64,000 bases of DNA from Paecilomyces variotii (taxonomy: Eukaryota), in NCBI GenBank assembly GCA_004022145.1, contig RCNU01000002.1; one strand, 5' to 3'. The first letter of the stretch is position 1; each line of letters begins with the position of its first letter. This document shows positions 3,555 through 22,039 of the stretch, piece after piece. The position numbers and the translations under genes are program-made. The notes under the pieces are model-generated. The model searched no databases, was not told where the DNA came from, and saw only the letters and a list, made by a program, of their open reading frames with translations.

Positions 3555-4190
3555 GGAGGGAGTAGAATGGTTTCTCAGATACTAGAAATTGCCTAATTGC
3601 CTTTCCTCCTTTCTTCTCGTCTTTGTGTCGGATTGGGAATTATATATATATGTCTATTTTATATACGAATGAGAAGATCAGATATATAGATTGTCGAATA
3701 TAATGAGGGAAAGCTTCTTGATTTAAGTTTTAGTATCTATCCCCCCCTCTCTCTCTCCTAACCTATAAGATGGGGGAAATACAGCAGTACCCTAGAAATT
3801 ACATTCTCATATCCTCTTCGAACAGAACCAACGACAACAATAATAGGATTAAGCAAGCAACTACATGCTAGAAAGGGAATTCCCGTCAAATTCTATTCAA
3901 GGTCGGGTATACAAACAAAGCTACACAATGAAATGCTTAACTTCCTATAGGGATTTTCCCTTCGTGTCTACCAAACATTCAACACGACCTTTGAGTGTCT
4001 CTACAGTTAATTATTTGGTAGGAAAATACCGTCCTGACTGGCAATAACGAGAAACAACAAGCAAGATAAGGGCATATTCACTTAATCGATATATATTCTC
4101 AACAGAGTCATATTTTCGTATATGAAACCAGAATAGACATACCTAATCTCATTCTATACAACACCTAGTCCCAGCCTTCTCCCTAACCTC

Positions 4191-4964
4191 ATGCACAACA
4201 AACCAACCCGCCCCCTCCACCCCTCCGACACCACCCTCCCTATCCACACGATCCGCATCGCCATCTATACCATCGGTCTATTCCTCTCCTCCGACACGCG
4301 CAGCGGGAGTCACGTCTCGATCTACCTCCTCCCAGGCACCGGGACATCTATCAGACTCGACATGTTCCAGGCCGACTTGACCGATACATTGGGCACGTAT
4401 CGGGTGCGGTGGTGCGAGTATGAGCTTTCGAAGAGGGCGGTGAGGATGTGGGATTTGATGCCTGTGCAGGGGTTAGTTGTGGGGGATGTGTTGGGGATGA
4501 TGGTGGAGAGGGAAAGGGGGGGGGGGGGGCGGTATAGGTTGGCGAGGAATGGGGTGGGGTGTAGGTTTTGGGTGTATGTGTGCTACCTACTTACTTACTA
4601 TACTGTGTTCTTGGTTCTGGTTTTTTTGTGGTTGTTGTTGTTGATTTTCTTTTGGGACTATAAGAGAGAAACAAGGAGTATCGATACTGTAACTAATGAA
4701 ATGTATGTATTGGGTCTGACATAGAAAAACCATCCTCACCGATATAGAGAAATACAACTACATATCATCACCACATAAGTCCACTCAGTCCTGCATTCGT
4801 GAAGGAGTTCCTTACGGTACAATTATTCGAAATCCGCGGAGCCGGTCCTTGATGAGATTGTTCAGGGGACGTTTCTATCTGAGAAGCAGGTTTGCGATGG
4901 ACCGATGGCAAGCTGTGAAGATTTAGGATGTGGCGTGTCGTGTTATGCAGGACTGGAGTTTTAG
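4191..4964 (+). pseudogene. Small fungal hypothetical protein (DUF7770-like), possibly frameshifted in exon 2
   Basis: Exon 1 (4191-4573) has SHVSIYLL...SIRLDM and RYRLARNGVGCRFWV. Intron 4574-4724 (GTATGT...ATAG). Exon 2 continues KTILTDIEKYNYI, but the family-like tail LRYNYSKSAEPVLDEIVQGTF (from 4812) is in another frame. Family assignment is from memory of the motifs. Confidence 0.5.
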
Positions 4965-12000: not shown

Positions 12001-13890
12001 CTGGTCAGGTAAGTATACCATTTCACCAGACATGCAGCCCGTCTACCGTACTGCATTTGATGCGGTGAACAAGTAGCCGGAACTCAGCGGTGAACACAAT
12101 CAATCTCCTCTCGCGTCAGTGGCTGAAGTCAATCATCTATTGCCACGAAAATCAGCATCGGCTCGACATGGATCTTTAATAATATGGCTTAGTAGAGAGA
12201 TGAGAGATAAGAAGTGAAAAGTTTTTAAAGAAAAATTTTCCTTCCACATTCTGTTTCCAACGTTGCAGTGCGCAGTGTGCAGCTGTCCTGATCCCTGTAC
12301 GCCTCGGGGCGTCAAATTTGTCAATGAGCCACTCGTGCTTACTTTCCCTTCGCGGTAACTACACGAGCAGTTGCGTAATATTGGCTGTCAAAAGTCTCCA
12401 TTATTATTATTATTGTCGAACGGTCGACGCTAATTGATCAATTAATCGCTGGAAGAGGGATGGCAGCCACGTGAGATTTGCTCCAACTTGCTCCAACTTA
12501 CTCCAACTCGGTATACGACCGACGGGTTGAAGTTTATTCTTCGAGATCATCTCCGCAACCAGGAGGTTCCTGTTGAGCGTAGCGAGGGGGAATGCCACGC
12601 GGACCACTCCTATGTGGGGGATGACAGCTCGTCGAACGCAATTCTGACGATGAACGATTATCTTGCAACGAGACGATCTGGTATTACCGGTCCACGCACT
12701 GGTGAAGCTCTTTCAAGATTTTTAGAGTATCCCTGCGGTAGACATGCCCGCCGTGCCTGTCATGTTCAAAACGCTTCTTCGCTGACGGGTTGCTTCGAAT
12801 GGACAATGCGTGATGTGTCCCTTCTCCAGCCAGTCGCGGGGTGTTCGGATACGCGGCCATCTGGGGGATACAACCCTCCTCTCTCTCACTGGCCAAGAGG
12901 ATACTGATCCCGAAAGCACTGCCGTGTTCCCTGGTTGCGAGTCGAACAAACTTCGCCATCTCGCGTGCTGCTAACGTTGCGGCGCTTGTTTCTCCACCGG
13001 TAGAAATTTTTTGCACGTTCAGGGCAGAGTCCGTGCGAGCAAAGGAGGAAAAGAGCGAGAGGCAAAACCAGAGGTTCGTTCATCGAGAACCAGCATGCTG
13101 GGTGGTCAGGAACACCAACAAGAGTATCACTGATGATCTATCCGACGGGAGGAATAGATACATCACTTCTGTAACGAAACCGGTTTTTTTTGGCTGGGAA
13201 GAACAATCCTATCCTACTCTAGAATACTGTGCTTTACTCGACGAGTATATACCATAGAGAAGCGCCGGTAACGGGCCCAACACGGGCGCCATCCGCGGTT
13301 CTCCGTCACATCGACAGTCCCCGACAGCCATTCTGCATTCGTACAAATAAGACACCGACGAGAAATCAGTTACTACTACTACTATCAAATTCTCTCTTGA
13401 CAAACTCAGATATCGGCCGTGCGGGACCCGACCAACTGGAGAGTCGTCGCTAACCCGCCCTGGACAACGGACGACCCACGCACCACACTGCTTAGGCATG
13501 GGGTACTCTACAAGACATTCCGATCTGATATTATTATTATTATGGATTCCGTCGTCGCCTTCTGCTGACCAGAACTCTGCCTCGAGGGTTTCTTGCTCCT
13601 CTTGCACCGGGTTCCAGGCAGACGACCGTCAATATCGTTGCACTGCCTGTTCTTTTCTCTGCCCTGTGTTGCACTGACATCTCAAGCTTCGATAGAATCT
13701 GATTGATCTCACGCGACCTCGGCCATTCTTCGCCTCGGATTCCTTCGCGCGGAGACCATGGAGACTTTGTTGTTCCGATCTGATAGCAAAATAGATCTAT
13801 GGCGGATGAGAACAAAGTAGTCCTGGTTTTCAGTCGAGCAGCTCGCGCTGGGGGTTTACCCCGCGGGCACTGTGTCTCTGTCGATCAAAC

Positions 13891-16721
13891 ATGCAGAGCC
13901 GCAGAGCCGCCGTTCTGGTGGTGTCGATTATACTCTTTGCCATTGCTACGGTCATTGTTGTATTGCGCTTCATATCAAGGATCGCTATTGTCAAGAAGGT
14001 CCTGTTGCATGATTACTTGATGCTGCTAGCATGGGTAAGTGCAGAGCTTCCGTACAACCGCTCCGCGTTTGCGACTGACTCGTGGAAAGGTGCTCGACCT
14101 TGGTTTTTCGGTCTCCCTCTTCGTCGCGACCTCGAAAGGGTTAGGTCTTCACGAGAAAGATGTCAACCCGGCTGATCAGCCCGTTCTTAACCGGGCGGAA
14201 TACACCTTCACGGTGCTCTATGTAAGTAATGCAACCAGAAGCGACCACAGAATCCCACACTGGCGTATACTGAACGAACGCTCTTTCCTTTTAGAACCCG
14301 GTATTAATGGCGATGAAAACATCAATCCTCGTCTTCTACCTCACCCTGACTAGAACAGACAAATTCTTTCGGTGGGCCAATTATGTGACCCTGGGTGTGG
14401 TGAACATCGCGGGCTTTGCGTTGACGTTTGTCAACCTCTTTCAGTGCCGTCCGGTGGGCGCAGCTTTCACCTATCCAGTACCAGCTCATGCGACATGTAC
14501 GGACATCGTCACTCTGTACCTCTCGTCTGCTCCCGTCAATATCATCACGGACCTCCTGATCCTCGTTCTCCCCATGCCTATATTGACGAGGATGCGCCTC
14601 CCACAGAAACAGAAGATCATTTTGGTGCTCACCTTCAGTTTCGGCTTCTTCGTCGCAGTCGTGGATGTGATTCGAATCGCTTATCTGCAGAACGCCTCGA
14701 CATCCCGCTTCTTGGCGTATAAAGCGTACGACACTTCCTATAACAATTCTGTGGAGTATTCCGACTTCACCTGGTACGCTTCTCTGGCGTTTATGTGGTC
14801 TGCTATCGAAGTCAACGTTGGTATGATATGCGCCTGCGTCCCGAGTCTTAAGCCCCTCGTATCTCGGATATTTCCCAGAATGCTTCGCGACACCGACGAA
14901 GTTACCTATGATGGTTCGGTCGAGCCTCCCAGACCATCCGCGGACATGGCTGCCACGACCCCTTCTCCTCCGGGCCCAAGAGCTATGGCACCTGGTTTGC
15001 GTAACTCCGGTTCCGGCGTCACTGGCAGTGGAAGTGGGAGCAGAACTGGAACGGGATGGAGCGGCGACGATACGATCAGGAACAGCTCCGCAGGGCAGAG
15101 TACATTTATGGAATTTCTGCTGTCTTCACAGCGAAGGGAAAATGTTGAAGAAGCAGACACGACGAATGCCGGTGGCACCGTGCAGCGGCACATTCATTTC
15201 TTCGATTTCGTCAATGTGAATCAACCGAAGAGCATGCTGAAGATGACCAATAAAGAGTCCATACTTCCCATCGCATCGACCACGATCCTTTTTTTCCTAT
15301 TGGGTTTCGCGTACGGCCTATTGGATATCTTGAACGACCAGTTCCAGAAGGTCATCGAGTTGGACTCATGGAGCTCACAGGGCATGCATGGCGCCTACTA
15401 CGGCGGTTATTTGGTCGGTCCGTTCCTCGTCGGTTATCCGGTTCTTACGAAATGGGGCTTCAAGCCAACCTTCATGACGGGCTTGTTCATCTACGCCTGC
15501 GGGAGTCTGATCTTCTGGCCTTCTGCTGTCCTGACCTCGTTTTCGGCCTACATAGTATCCAACTTCGTCGTGGGTTGTGGACTTGCCGTTCTGGAGACCG
15601 CAGCGAATCCGTTCATCTCGCTCTGTGGGCCACAGGAGAACTCCGAAATCCGATTGAACATATCCCAAGGTGTTCAGGCTATTGGCAGCGTGGTTTCTCC
15701 GCTGCTTGCCAAGAAGGTGCTCTTCAAGCAGGTTAAGGATGCGCCAAGCTTTGTGGATGTTCAGTGGACCTACTTGGCCATTGCCCTCTTTGATATGCTC
15801 CTGGCAGTGGTCTTTTACTATATGCCTATCCCGGAAGCATCCGACGAGGACCTGAAAGAACTAGCTTATCAGCGCCACGATGATAACTCTGCCAAGGTTG
15901 GGCCGATTCCTGTCGTTTGGCTCACCTTCGGACTGGGTGTGTTCTCGATGTTCTGCTATGTCGGTGGCCAGGAGACAGTCTCTACCAACCTCGAACCTCT
16001 TGTGGATTACTTGAAACCCAAATCTTCCAGTCTCAGTTCTTTTGAATATCTCACAATCGGTCATACAGTGTTCGCAGTCGGGCGCTTCCTGACAGCATTT
16101 GCTCAGTGGATCCTCAAACCTCGCTGGATCCTTCTTGTCGCATATATCGGCATGATCGTATTTTCGATTCTCTGCATGAACGTTTCAGGTTATGCAGGCA
16201 TTGCCATGGCATTGATGGTGTATGTTTTCGAAAGCGGCGTCTTCAGCATCATCTTTGCAATCTCTCTGCGCGGCACCGCTCAATACACCAAGACCGCAGC
16301 AGTCATAATGACCGCTGCCATCAGCGGTGGAAGCGTCTTCCCTTTCCCACAATACGCCGCTTCTAGGGCGCGCGGTGTCCAATACTCGTTCTGTGTCACC
16401 GTCGCTGTTTTCTGTGCGGGCGCGATCTTCCCATTGTACCTGAATCTGGTCCCAGCAGCCCGCAAGCAAGTCGATCCGGTGCCTAACGAATACTTGCGTC
16501 GACATCATCCGCTACGACATCTTCAAAAACAAGACATCGTCGGTGAAAAGGACGACTCCCCTCGCGGTGGAGTAGCATCCCGACGAGGCAGCGGCAACTC
16601 GAATCTATTTGCCGATTGTCAAAGACCAGCAGCCAGCCATCGACGCGATTACACGAGCATGACCGGCTCTACCAGCACTGGTGGCATCATGCACGAACTC
16701 GCACCATGGCCAAACACATAA
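13891..16721 (+). CDS. Fusion protein: N-terminal PTH11-like fungal rhodopsin (7TM GPCR-like) domain plus C-terminal FucP/glucose-galactose family MFS permease
   Basis: Exons 13891-14034, 14090-14221, 14295-16721. The N-half has PTH11-like hallmarks (LRFISR..DYLMLLAW, GLGLH, KTSILVFY, FQCRPV, NIITDLLILVLPMP, IRI, WSAIEVNVGMICACVPSLKP). The C-half has FucP hallmarks (GLLDILN, LETAANPF, RLNISQG, FCYVGGQ). Both domains continue within one stop-free 804-aa ORF. The exact start codon is uncertain. Confidence 0.88.
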
Positions 16722-16970
16722 AATCCCTCAAACATCCTTCTACATTTCTCATTTTCCCTATCTCTTCCTTGCACTTTTTTCTCTTTTCTTATCCATTGAT
16801 ACCCCCTATCTCGTTAGATGTCCCACACCTGACATTAAACTCTCTTATCCACAGCAGAAAACTGCATCTGCGCTTTCAGATACCAACGGTCTATCTATCC
16901 CATTTATCTTCTCATACTACCTTTTAATCTATCAGATCCTTTTTGTGACTTTTATAATGTAGATACTCTT

Positions 16971-17073
16971 CTTTCTTCCTTTCTTTCTTCCTTTCTTTCT
17001 TCCTTTCTTTCTTCCTTTCTTTCTTCCTTTCTTTCTTCCTTTCTTTCTTCCTTTCTTTCTTCCTTTCTTTCTT
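16971..17073. repeat. Polypyrimidine minisatellite, about 8 copies of CTTTCTTTCTTC
   Basis: Direct reading; it produces the spurious KKER/RKKG repeat ORFs on the minus strand. Confidence 0.95.
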
Positions 17074-17929
17074 CTTTTCTTTTCTTTTTTTGTGACGATA
17101 CACTTCATTTTTTCCACACCCATACATACTTTAGTTATAATATGTGTAGTTATGTTTTTTTTTCCTTTCAAGCGACGGCGTTACCATTAGACAACAATTT
17201 TCGCATCCTATCCACTTGCATTGGGAGAAAAGCTTTTTTTCTAATTTTTTTTTATTTTGGGTCCTTCTCCAAATTAAAAGTTACGTGACATGCGGGGGGG
17301 AACTAGAAGACAAGTTTTTTTTTTTTGTTTTTCTCTTTTTTAGAATCATTTTTAGTCAAGGGACTTACTTCTCTTTACATTCTATCAAGTATATAGAGTA
17401 CATACATGGTTATCATATTCTTATTCGCTGTTTTATAGAATAGATGCTTCGCATAATATATCGGTGCAATACATATCTATGTCCTGTCTTGCTATATAAC
17501 TTGTAAGCGTTAACTACCGTGAGTAATTAGTTAAGTGTTGTTGTTGTTGGGATTCCTGGGGCGGGATACCACATGACTTGCACGAAGGCTGCGTTGTCGC
17601 TGGATATGGCTGAGACGTCGGAATGGATCTACAACCACTTAATATCATTACTATCGGTCTTCACGTTCTACCAGGAAAAAAAAAAGATCGAGTTTATGAT
17701 CGTAATCATCTATATTCATTTTTCATTCCGTAGCTAACCGAAAGGCCAAAATATATCGCTAGAAGTACCAATGCCAAAACACACGGCTCCACGCCAACAG
17801 GAGGTATATATAGTCCATGAAAGAGATATGTCTATATCTCTATATTGAGAAAGAAGAGAAAAAAAAAAATATGTATCAAGTCAAGAAGGGAAGAGAGGGA
17901 TCAGCAAACCAGTGCTGTTCGGATGGCCC

Positions 17930-19516
<1,587 letters not shown>

Positions 19517-19973: not shown

Positions 19974-20832
19974 CGCGACTCATGGCCTTCTGTCACTGTT
20001 TGCGGTCTTCCCACTCGCTCGGGCTGCTTCTTATCTGGCCACCCCAGAAGCTGCCGAAATCGCACGGAGAATGCCCCCTCCTCCCCGCATTCAATGAAGG
20101 AAATTTGGTCTCGTGTCCGGGGAGGGCACGTGCGTCTCCGGTTTAGCGTCCAGCCTTACGGGATTCAATTTTGTATTATCCAACTGATAACTGGTTCACT
20201 TGCAGCACACACTTTGCTCTCGAAACTTGAACAGTGAATATCTGGATTCGATACTATTAATGTAACTCAACACGAAGAAGACGTCGAAAATAGGGCACAG
20301 ATGAATTTATACCCAACAAGGATCAACGACTGTTGATATGGTAGTTTCTATGGAAATACGCTCGCAAGCATCTTTGAAAAGGTATAAGGAATTCTGTTCT
20401 GCTGGCTTGAAACAAATAATACAATGACTTGTCAGCGCTCACGGCTTCAATGGAGGCGAGCTGCAAAACGCCACTACTATTCTATGTACAGGTGGTGGCA
20501 GTGCTCCAGGCAGCAGTCGTTCAGGATGACGTCCATGGGCATAAATAGTCAATAAATTTCATCCCCTCTAGCTCTTTAAGCAATCAAGCTCTCAGTCCCG
20601 TATCAGATGCTATTTCAACATCCTTCCTTCCGTGGTCTTCGATCCTGACATAAATTGACGGTGAGATATGAGATGAGATTAGGCTGAGTCTATTGTTGGC
20701 ACGGCGTGAACGACGGAAAAAGTAATGTACGTCTCTATTATTTGTTCCCTATTCTACTCGATACATTCTGCCGTGTGACAGAGAGTGTGGTTCCCGTGTC
20801 CCAGCACAAATACAAGGTCTTGATAACATTGT

Positions 20833-22039
20833 TCATGGCGCGTCGACCGGGTCCCAATCTGTATTTGTTAGTTAGTATGTACGCACCTTGCAGACAAAAC
20901 AGGACGACCGAATACTTACCCGTCACAAGGTATTCATCCAACCCATCCAGGGTCTTCATGTCAGCCTCGTCAATCTCAAATCCGCCCACATCCGCGTTCG
21001 AAATGATCCGCTCCTTCGACGTGCTCTTCGGCAGCGGCACGTATCCATGCTGCAGACTCCATCGCACCAGCAGCTGGGCCCAAGTGCATCCATACTTCTT
21101 CGACAGCGCGACAACGGTCGGGTGACTCTTGCGATACGCACGTGCCAGTGGCGCATACGCTTCCACCACGATGTTGTTCTCTTGACAGAATGAAGTGATA
21201 TCGGTGCGAGTATTGAACGGATGCACCTCAATCTGGTTGACCGCAGGACGGATGCGAGGGCTCGATCCAAGCAGCTCCTTCAGATGTCGGACACCAAAGT
21301 TGCTGACCCCTCCCGTGCGGATTTCATTATCCAGAATGGCATCCTCAATAGCGCGCCAGGCCTCAAGTCGCTGAGCCTTTCCGCCATAGGGACTGTGGAT
21401 GAGGAAGAGATCAATGTAGTCCAGCCCTGAAACACTCAAAGACTTCTTGATCGACCGACGGGTGGCGTCGTAGCCATTGTTGGAAGCCAGCTTCGTTGTG
21501 AAGAAGATATCCTCCCGCGTCAGTCCATTGGGCTTGTTCTTCTCTTTCTCGAGGAAGGACAGGATGGCACGGCCGACCTCCCTCTCATTGTGGTACATCT
21601 GAGCACTATCGACCCTGTTTCATCATTCCAGCATTGAAGCCTCAGAGTCAGCTTGTTTGATCCGACAAGAGGATCCGATCTGGTCTAGCGAGACTGGACA
21701 CACCCTCGATATCCGGCCTACGCAATGGAACCGTCAGCTGGTCTGGTCCACAGTGGTGAAACATTGACTATCCAGATGACCAGCAACTCACCTCTAGGGC
21801 CCATTTGACTGCATTCTCGGTCTCCTTCCCAGAGGTCATGTAGACTCCTAGCTGGATCTGCGGCATGAACGCGCCATTGGGAAGCTATACGAAACAGGCA
21901 ATCGCAGACGGTGTCAGCAACCATGAACCGATGGATCAATTGACCCTCAAGAATGAGAAAGTGCTAGAATTAGGGATGGAGATCCAGTTCTGACCTTGAT
22001 CTTCGTCGACAGGGAAAATACGTTCTTGGGAGACGCCAT
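20833..22039 (-). CDS. Aldo-keto reductase (AKR family)
   Basis: Spliced model: [15 protein letters not shown] / [19 protein letters not shown]...WALE / AGYRG / [10 protein letters not shown]...FFTTKL...[10 protein letters not shown]...GVSNFG...NQIEVHPF...PLPKS...DEYLVT / DWDPVDAP*. The catalytic Asp, Tyr, Lys and His are all visible. Confidence 0.93.

Follow-up and report, generated by a model that had tools for sequence, protein, structure and literature searches.

Gene structure and transcript

The window analysed here is a stretch of 64,000 nucleotides from Paecilomyces variotii (contig RCNU01000002.1, assembly GCA_004022145.1). At positions 13891-16721 its plus strand carries a three-exon gene, read from the sequence as 48 + 44 + 808 codons, whose 900-residue product joins a PTH11-like seven-transmembrane (7TM) domain to a sugar permease of the FucP type from the major facilitator superfamily (MFS). 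The start codon at 13891 is the first in-frame ATG downstream of the stop at 13807-13809. The stop-to-stop frame 14295-16721 (+) is open over 808 codons and closes with a TAA at 16719-16721. Both exon joins agree letter for letter with P0002, a 900-residue database protein of P. variotii that is 99% identical to the product of the exon 3 open reading frame (ORF), and the translation of exon 1 equals the N-terminus of that protein. The features of the gene and its product are collected in Table 1.

Transcript evidence was obtained by aligning contigs from four public runs (X1, X2, X3 and X5) to window positions 13500-17100. One X2 contig of 3481 letters aligned on 13500-14033, 14089-14221 and 14295-16961, and one X3 contig of 2380 letters, from a different study, aligned on 13782-14033, 14089-14221 and 14295-16289; both cover exon 1, and both lack exactly the two predicted GT..AG introns, with zero further joints. 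Since both introns are absent, these contigs derive from spliced RNA that is continuous over the 7TM exons, the linker and the transporter part. One spliced mRNA is thus made from the gene, and it encodes 900 residues with about 19 transmembrane (TM) helices. The original prediction, drawn from the DNA letters alone, had held that the two domains form a real in-frame fusion within one exon and are not a product of merged gene models; the spliced contigs of the two studies bear this out, and the X2 contig crosses the linker region (about 14890-15270) without a break. The metatranscriptome runs were uninformative on splicing and on transcript ends: X1 gave a single unspliced contig of 5445 letters, and X5 yielded three pieces with adapter sequence at their loose ends.

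Two upstream start codons were also observed. One opens a 73-codon ORF (MADENK..., 13799-14020, +) that runs across the main start at 13891 in another frame, and a second, at about 13759, opens a shorter one. The spliced contigs of X2 (from 13500) and X3 (from 13782) include the 73-codon ORF, and such upstream ORFs may control translation of the main frame.

Table 1. Features of the fused gene and of its product, in window coordinates
Feature	Position	Strand	Residues or codons	Remarks
Exon 1	13891-14034	+	48 codons	144 nt; start codon, TM1, start of TM2
Intron 1	14035-14089	+		55 nt, GTAAGT...AG; absent from one X2 and one X3 contig
Exon 2	14090-14221	+	44 codons	132 nt; rest of TM2, outer loop 1, start of TM3
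Intron 2	14222-14294	+		73 nt, GTAAGT...AG; absent from the X2 and X3 contigs that skip intron 1
Exon 3	14295-16721	+	808 codons + TAA	TM3-TM7, linker, whole MFS domain, C-terminal tail; single open frame
PTH11-like / Fung_rhodopsin 7TM domain	13891-14888 (introns included)	+	1-290	PF20684; seven long helices
Disordered linker, Ser/Gly/Thr-rich	14904-15194	+	296-392	
Pre-MFS motif FFDFV	15198-15212	+	394-398	
FucP-type (FHS family) MFS domain	15249-16472	+	411-818	12 TM helices; 3o7q, TIGR00885, Foldseek
Asp436, counterpart of FucP Asp46 (GLLDILN)	15324-15326	+	436	phmmer alignment to 3o7q, codon checked
Glu526, counterpart of FucP Glu135 (LETAANP)	15594-15596	+	526	phmmer alignment to 3o7q, codon checked
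Gln553, at FucP Asn162 position (SQGVQAIG)	15675-15677	+	553	phmmer alignment to 3o7q, codon checked

Domain composition of the fused protein

The N-terminal half belongs to the PF20684 (Fung_rhodopsin) family. In the Pfam scan the exon 3 ORF matched this profile at E 7.2e-44 (150.5 bits against a gathering cut-off of 27), with ORF residues 3-191 aligned to positions 69-237 of the 237-position profile; the rhodopsin-domain match expected beforehand was thus obtained, and its extent agrees with the earlier statement that most of the 7TM domain lies in exon 3. No CFEM match was found at E <= 0.1 in exon 1, 2 or 3. The protein has essentially no ectodomain, as TM1 begins at about residue 5 and only some 4-6 residues precede it.

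The largest receptor-like family that filamentous ascomycetes possess is that of the PTH11-like proteins. They are assigned to class XIV of the G-protein-coupled receptors (GPCRs) of fungi, in a literature that describes fungal GPCRs as mostly orphan (PMC13308352), and the class is reported to be mainly confined to Pezizomycotina (10.1101/2024.11.25.625238). The window's protein resembles Magnaporthe oryzae PTH11 and its class in the PF20684 score far over the cut-off, in the seven helices and in a distribution mainly within Pezizomycotina. It differs from PTH11 itself in the absence of CFEM (PF05730), a domain found in PTH11 but not in all PTH11-like proteins, and from the class in that its 7TM domain has no extracellular N-terminus and runs at its C-terminus into a transporter instead of ending in a free cytosolic tail.

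Fold searches of the 7TM half were carried out not with the window's own protein but with a model (predicted local distance difference test, pLDDT, 80) of P0269, a database protein 41% identical to it that ends just past the linker. The best VIA-align match was Saccharomyces cerevisiae Ste2, a class D GPCR (PDB 7AD3), with Z 18.6 and a root-mean-square deviation (rmsd) of 4.0 Å over 251 residues. This is about 3 Z units above the next entry, TAS2R14 (Z 15.8), which was followed by designed GPCR-like bundles and adiponectin receptor 2 (Z 15.2); receptors of classes A, C and F appeared by the dozen at Z 12-14, and only Ste2 lies clearly above the Z of about 13-14 that, by the program's own note, unrelated helical bundles can reach. 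A Foldseek search of the PDB with the same model returned nothing at E <= 0.001, its best rows being HCA3, a class T GPCR and the rhodopsin KR2 (E 5e-3 to 1e-2, rmsd 8-9 Å), and the assignment of a GPCR fold is therefore taken from VIA-align. On this model the 7TM half is GPCR-like by fold only, with Ste2 as its closest relative in shape; the two share 7% identity with no Pfam or sequence relationship detected, and the match is no evidence of G-protein coupling.

The C-terminal half was matched by PF07690 (MFS_1) at E 4.1e-14 over exon 3 ORF residues 332-681 and, among NCBIfam models, best by fucP (TIGR00885, E 1.4e-42), which ranked before gluP and NagP. The only solved structures matched by sequence were the Escherichia coli FucP entries 3o7q and 3o7p (TC 2.A.1.7), the former at E 1.1e-33 in phmmer, over FucP residues 22-426 at about 24% identity. 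The same two entries took ranks 1-2 in Foldseek (E 6e-14, TM-score 0.80 on the target). Both domain identities given in the original prediction are in line with these matches.

The cavity acids Asp46 and Glu135 of FucP reportedly act in H+/fucose symport. The phmmer alignment to 3o7q places Asp at the first of these positions, Glu at the second and Gln at that of Asn162, as had been read from the sequence motifs. The window's protein therefore shares with FucP the 12-TM MFS fold and both acidic residues; it is unlike FucP in the Asn162 replacement and in its additional N-terminal 7TM domain, linker and disordered tail of 60-80 residues. Characterised fungal members of the FHS family are the rhamnose or fucose/rhamnose transporters RhtA of Aspergillus niger and FRT-1 of Neurospora crassa (PMC5161314, PMC10774165). 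They belong to the same MFS family as the permease half and, compared by description, are presented in the available excerpts of these reports as FucP-domain transporters, with no 7TM domain mentioned there (PMC5161314, PMC10774165). N. crassa is described as having three more uncharacterised FHS genes, with protein lengths up to 1050 residues (PMC10774165), and one of these may be the fused form.

Structural model and membrane topology

A full-length AlphaFold2 prediction was made with P0002 as the first row and the alignment A1 of 132 full-length fused homologues. The model has a mean pLDDT of 83 and a predicted template-modelling score (pTM) of 0.81, with 702 of 900 residues at pLDDT >=70. 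It contains seven long helices in the 7TM half (5-34, 39-63, 75-110, 115-140, 163-191, 196-238 and 250-284, mostly at pLDDT above 90) and 12 transporter helices between residues 411 and 818, which matches the roughly 7 + 12 helices anticipated. A crude hydropathy scan was discarded for the helix count in favour of the model helices, since its 26 peaks overlapped and several MFS helices were missed. By our reading of the definition of pTM, a value of 0.81 with only 702 of 900 residues confident needs a confident relative placement of the two bundles, and on this basis the 7TM and MFS bundles would pack together in a fixed arrangement.

Loops rich in Lys and Arg follow TM1 (RFISRIAIVKK), TM3 (TRTDKFFR), TM5 (TRMRLPQKQK) and TM7 (KPLVSRIFPRMLR), and a nearly invariant cysteine pair, C143/C160, lies in the TM4-TM5 loop, which is predicted to face outward. 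Because of this pattern, the N-terminus is predicted outside, and the C-terminus of the 7TM domain, the linker and both ends of the MFS domain in the cytosol. A cytosolic MFS N-terminus is what the MFS fold requires, and the 7 + 12 arrangement fits as topologically compatible.

The linker contains 14 Ser, 13 Gly and 11 Thr in its 97 residues, and pLDDT falls below 50 over residues 299-361. It is also the least conserved part of the protein: across the 132 fused proteins, column conservation over residues 301-380 is 0.25-0.40 and the gap share 0.19-0.39. The idea of a disordered, Ser/Thr-rich cytosolic linker fits these data, with disorder indicated by composition and pLDDT and the cytosolic side suggested by the positive-inside loops and the outer-loop cysteine pair.

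Directly ahead of the MFS domain, 104 of the 132 proteins carry the pattern F[FY]DF[VIL], and F395, F397 and V398 are each at least 90% conserved. The five stand-alone Mycena proteins inspected showed no motif of this type at that place. Being common in fused proteins and missing from these five, FFDFV is a candidate coupling element specific to the fusion. The C-terminal tail (838-900) is disordered in the model. Five residues from the end of the protein lies a short motif, LAPWP (16698-16712, +), that recurs near the C-terminus in A. fumigatus, Arachnomyces and others; it was dropped as a family feature, as only 27/132 fused proteins carry it, and its patchy occurrence might come from gene models that differ at the 3' end or mark a sorting signal particular to a clade.

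Distribution and history of the fusion

To survey the architecture, a database of 5.8 billion proteins was searched, with a phmmer check. Both halves were present in the same order in 120/120 best matches. In the precomputed Pfam column, 119 of them have both families and the remaining one (P0108) PF20684 only; the genera represented are Aspergillus, Penicillium, Talaromyces, Thermoascus, Rasamsonia, Elaphomyces, Penicilliopsis and Arachnomyces. An exhaustive search of 50%-identity representatives gave 315 clusters at E <= 1e-30; among the 150 of these that were listed, 87 have both halves, 52 the MFS part only and 11 the 7TM part only. The fusion occurs in Eurotiomycetes, Sordariomycetes, Leotiomycetes, Dothideomycetes and Pezizomycetes. 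Of the fused representatives, ten distant ones (33-42% identity) were chosen, among them Fusarium oxysporum, Pseudogymnoascus, Phaeosphaeriaceae sp., Microsporum, Pyronema omphalodes, Sphaerosporella brunnea and a Talaromyces atroroseus paralogue; PF20684 was found in 10/10 and MFS_1 at E <= 0.001 in 9/10. The survey of orthologues that had been proposed thus recovered the architecture both in the best matches and among the representatives. The breadth of the distribution points to an old fusion that the Pezizomycotina have retained.

The gene is present in A. fumigatus, A. terreus, Penicillium rubens, dermatophytes and F. oxysporum. As had been suspected, automated annotations already show the architecture; the labels used include 'Rhodopsin domain-containing protein', 'L-fucose-proton symporter' and 'putative MFS monosaccharide transporter'. 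One fused PTH11-like/FHS protein (P0147), which belongs to the ten distant representatives, is deposited as 'Tremellales sp. Uapishka_1', which is a basidiomycete label. PTH11-like proteins are reported to be confined to Pezizomycotina, and ascomycete contamination or gene transfer may lie behind this record. Named stand-alone MFS relatives come from Mycena species (Basidiomycota) and from Drechslerella stenobrocha (Orbiliomycetes).

A FastTree phylogeny was computed from 211 MFS domains, of which fused proteins supplied 185 and MFS-only proteins 26, using rows that cover positions <=35 to >=395 of the 430-residue query and a root that we placed on Mycena. The Mycena group and three unnamed stand-alone sequences lie at the base, and all fused forms fall into one clade, together with P0254, at a support of 0.999. 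Several MFS-only rows lie inside the fused clade. Four of them (P0145, P0139, P0179 and P0255) start with remnants of the linker, of an FFDFV-type motif or of the region after TM7, two others (P0167 and P0227) share 90% clusters with fused members, and most such rows look like truncated gene models. P0220, a 515-residue MFS-only protein of D. stenobrocha, is nested in the fused clade after the Pezizomycetes branch; its lack of the 7TM half could be a secondary loss or an incomplete gene model. The simplest reading of the tree is one fusion early in Pezizomycotina followed by duplication, a reading that is provisional because of the root and the low-support inner nodes.

Conservation of the transporter residues

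Both domains are well conserved in the 132 fused proteins, with the commonest residue reaching a mean share of about 0.6-0.9 per 20-residue block. In the MFS half, the column of R545 holds Arg in 132/132, that of E526 holds Glu in 125/132 and that of Q553 holds Gln in 126/132. The Microsporum (dermatophyte) members, five rows, have Asn at the Asp46 position and Gln at the Glu135 position, so that both cavity acids are neutralised, and F. oxysporum members have Phe at the Asp46 position. The Microsporum and F. oxysporum versions are the best candidates for non-transporting sensor forms.

Relation to known transporter-receptor systems

By design, the nearest known analogue is LYCHOS/GPR155. In LYCHOS the transporter precedes the 7TM domain, the reverse of the order in the window's protein; it is lysosomal and carries a DEP domain. 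The human protein is described as a hybrid of a PIN-like transporter and a GPCR, a 17-TM 'transceptor' (PMC11525196, PMC11574030, 10.1101/2024.09.24.614577), and like the window's protein it combines a transporter fold and a GPCR-like 7TM fold in a single chain. The two differ in the transporter, which is PIN/AEC-like there and MFS here, and in the class of the 7TM domain; LYCHOS was not among the fold-search matches of the 7TM model, and no sequence relationship was found. Transporter folds with long cytosolic tails also serve in nutrient sensing in yeast (Gap1, Pho84 and Mep2; Snf3/Rgt2), and none of these is known to carry a separate 7TM receptor-like domain. These transceptors and sensors consist of the transporter fold alone, whereas the protein described here adds a 7TM domain to it.

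No paper describing a PTH11-MFS fusion was found in the main texts of openly licensed PMC papers and bioRxiv preprints, and the same texts yielded no functional characterisation, in keeping with what had been stated earlier. The hybrid is ancient and, in these texts, unremarked, although the sequence itself already stands in public annotations.

Proposed function

Considering the domain identities, the conserved fusion and the predicted packing, we hypothesize that the protein is a transport-competent FHS sugar permease with a permanently attached, packed 7TM partner of GPCR fold that modulates or reads its state, while the linker, the FFDFV segment and the C-terminal tail form a cytosolic regulatory surface. 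We hold this to be a fairly probable account. The permease half would most likely work by alternating access and import a hexose or 6-deoxyhexose, coupled to protons by Asp436 and Glu526. Within the membrane, the 7TM bundle would flank the permease laterally as its fixed partner in the chain and would tune or read the state of the transporter, and its cytosolic face, together with the linker, the FFDFV segment and the C-terminal tail, could serve phosphorylation, turnover or partner binding. True G-protein signalling as the output is a less likely extension.

Several observations weigh against this account. The score of the TIGR00885 match, 146.3 bits, is far under the equivalog cut-off of 280.4, so the substrate cannot be read from the family name, and the MFS half is best regarded as a family-level FHS homologue and not as a FucP equivalog. 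The column of D436 holds Asp in only 101/132 fused proteins and another residue in 31/132. Among the 101 relatives with at least 50% identity, 95 have the D-E-Q triplet and 4 have Ala, Ser or Gly at the Asp46 position; among the 31 with less than 50% identity, Asp is kept in 4 and replaced by Asn, Gly, Ser, Ala, Phe or Leu in 27. The A. tubingensis orthologue cluster has Ala there. As the Asp46 position is so often replaced, classical FucP-type proton coupling is not what selection keeps family-wide, which weakens the analogy with H+/fucose symport as a family property. The window's protein looks transport-competent by FucP criteria, but the family as a whole is not dependent on an Asp46-type residue. 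The packing interface, in turn, is predicted from one number, the pTM. All four RNA runs consist of assembled contigs, which are blind to transcript starts and ends and would miss an extra internal start. Uptake, localisation or signalling data were not found in the literature for any fused member. The neighbouring genes (glutamate dehydrogenase, aldo-keto reductase and DUF7770) are uninformative on the substrate, and no glycoside hydrolase or sugar-catabolic cluster was seen beside the permease gene among 10 neighbouring ORFs scanned with Pfam.

Alternative explanations

A stronger alternative would make the protein a true one-chain transceptor, in which the 7TM half shifts its conformation as the MFS half binds or transports sugar and then switches on heterotrimeric G proteins or signalling through cyclic AMP (cAMP). 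To our knowledge, most PTH11-like proteins are orphan, and coupling has been studied only for PTH11 itself. The class XIV assignment (PMC13308352), the closeness of the 7TM fold to a G-protein-coupled fungal receptor, the age and conservation of the fusion, the fixed assembly implied by the model and the described precedent of LYCHOS/GPR155 all speak for it. Against it, fold says nothing on function, since Z 13-16 is reached by microbial rhodopsins, the adiponectin receptor and soluble bundles made by design as well; Foldseek gave no match at its threshold, and the receptor half has no ectodomain. We regard this alternative as unlikely. The 'transceptor' reading, which the original prediction favoured, is plausible but unproven, and that interpretation is partly supported; its plant-wall monosaccharide as the substrate and its phosphorylatable linker hinge stand as proposals.

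A second alternative is a sugar sensor comparable to Snf3/Rgt2 that does not transport: its MFS half would only bind the ligand, and signalling would fall to the 7TM half and the tails. The replacement of Asp46 in 27/31 distant relatives, as opposed to 4/101 closer ones, suggests that proton-coupled transport is dispensable in much of the family, and the cytosolic segments 299-361 and 838-900 are long and disordered. Against this, the window's protein and 95/101 of the closer relatives retain D-E-Q, E526 and R545 are kept almost throughout or without exception, the MFS core is among the most conserved parts, and the stand-alone Mycena relatives inspected also have Asp at the Asp46 position. 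For the window's protein we consider such a role improbable.

It is more improbable still that one gene yields two proteins, by an internal promoter, by a start at Met406 or Met409, or by proteolysis of the linker, so that the fusion has no joint function. The linker is disordered and poorly conserved, methionines stand ahead of the MFS domain, and the RNA contigs would not reveal such transcript ends; yet the frame is open across the linker in 132/132 fused proteins from at least five Pezizomycotina classes, spliced contigs of two studies are continuous over it, the pTM implies a co-evolved contact between the halves, and the inspected 'stand-alone' rows P0145, P0139, P0179 and P0255 look like truncated gene models. 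A mere artefact, that is, a chance open frame, an assembly error or a strain-specific deletion merging two neighbours, is refuted by the 120/120 fused best matches from many genera together with RNA contigs identical to the window from independent runs.

The permease with an attached regulatory 7TM partner remains our preferred account, and what it means depends on the role of that partner. If the 7TM half is only a regulatory appendage, the fusion would be well documented but of an ordinary sort, and public annotations show it already. It is also conceivable, though doubtful, that the protein represents a second, independently evolved class of transporter-GPCR hybrids, fungal and of roughly Pezizomycotina age, in which the 7TM half reads the conformational cycle of the sugar-loaded MFS half directly and passes it to G-protein/cAMP signalling. 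If true, a clade of the PTH11-like receptors, a large family of orphans, would gain its first ligand class, and the idea of a transporter-plus-GPCR hybrid, so far LYCHOS/GPR155, would reach another kingdom and another transporter superfamily. A PTH11-like clade welded to a sugar permease would act as a 'Rosetta stone', offering a probable ligand class, a physical partner and a tractable assay, and its presence in model, medical and industrial moulds makes results checkable in several systems.

Surrounding DNA

Three of the 10 neighbouring ORFs matched a Pfam family. The convergent ORF at 17930-19108 (-) carries ELFV_dehydrog (Glu/Leu/Phe/Val dehydrogenase, E 3.5e-82) and the dimerisation domain, in a region with a local GC content of 0.62-0.65, and probably encodes an NADP-glutamate dehydrogenase. 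The ORF at 20738-21619 (-) is an aldo/keto reductase by its match (E 2e-32), and that at 4137-4724 (+) matches DUF7770 (E 4e-18). About 250 nt beyond the stop codon of the fused gene, a microsatellite of period 12 (TTCTTTCTTCCT) occupies 16969-17082 with 9.5 copies at 99% matches, within an AT-rich stretch (GC 0.32 at 17000-17499). The RNA contigs end at about 16961-16964, at this microsatellite, where the aligner skips repeats.

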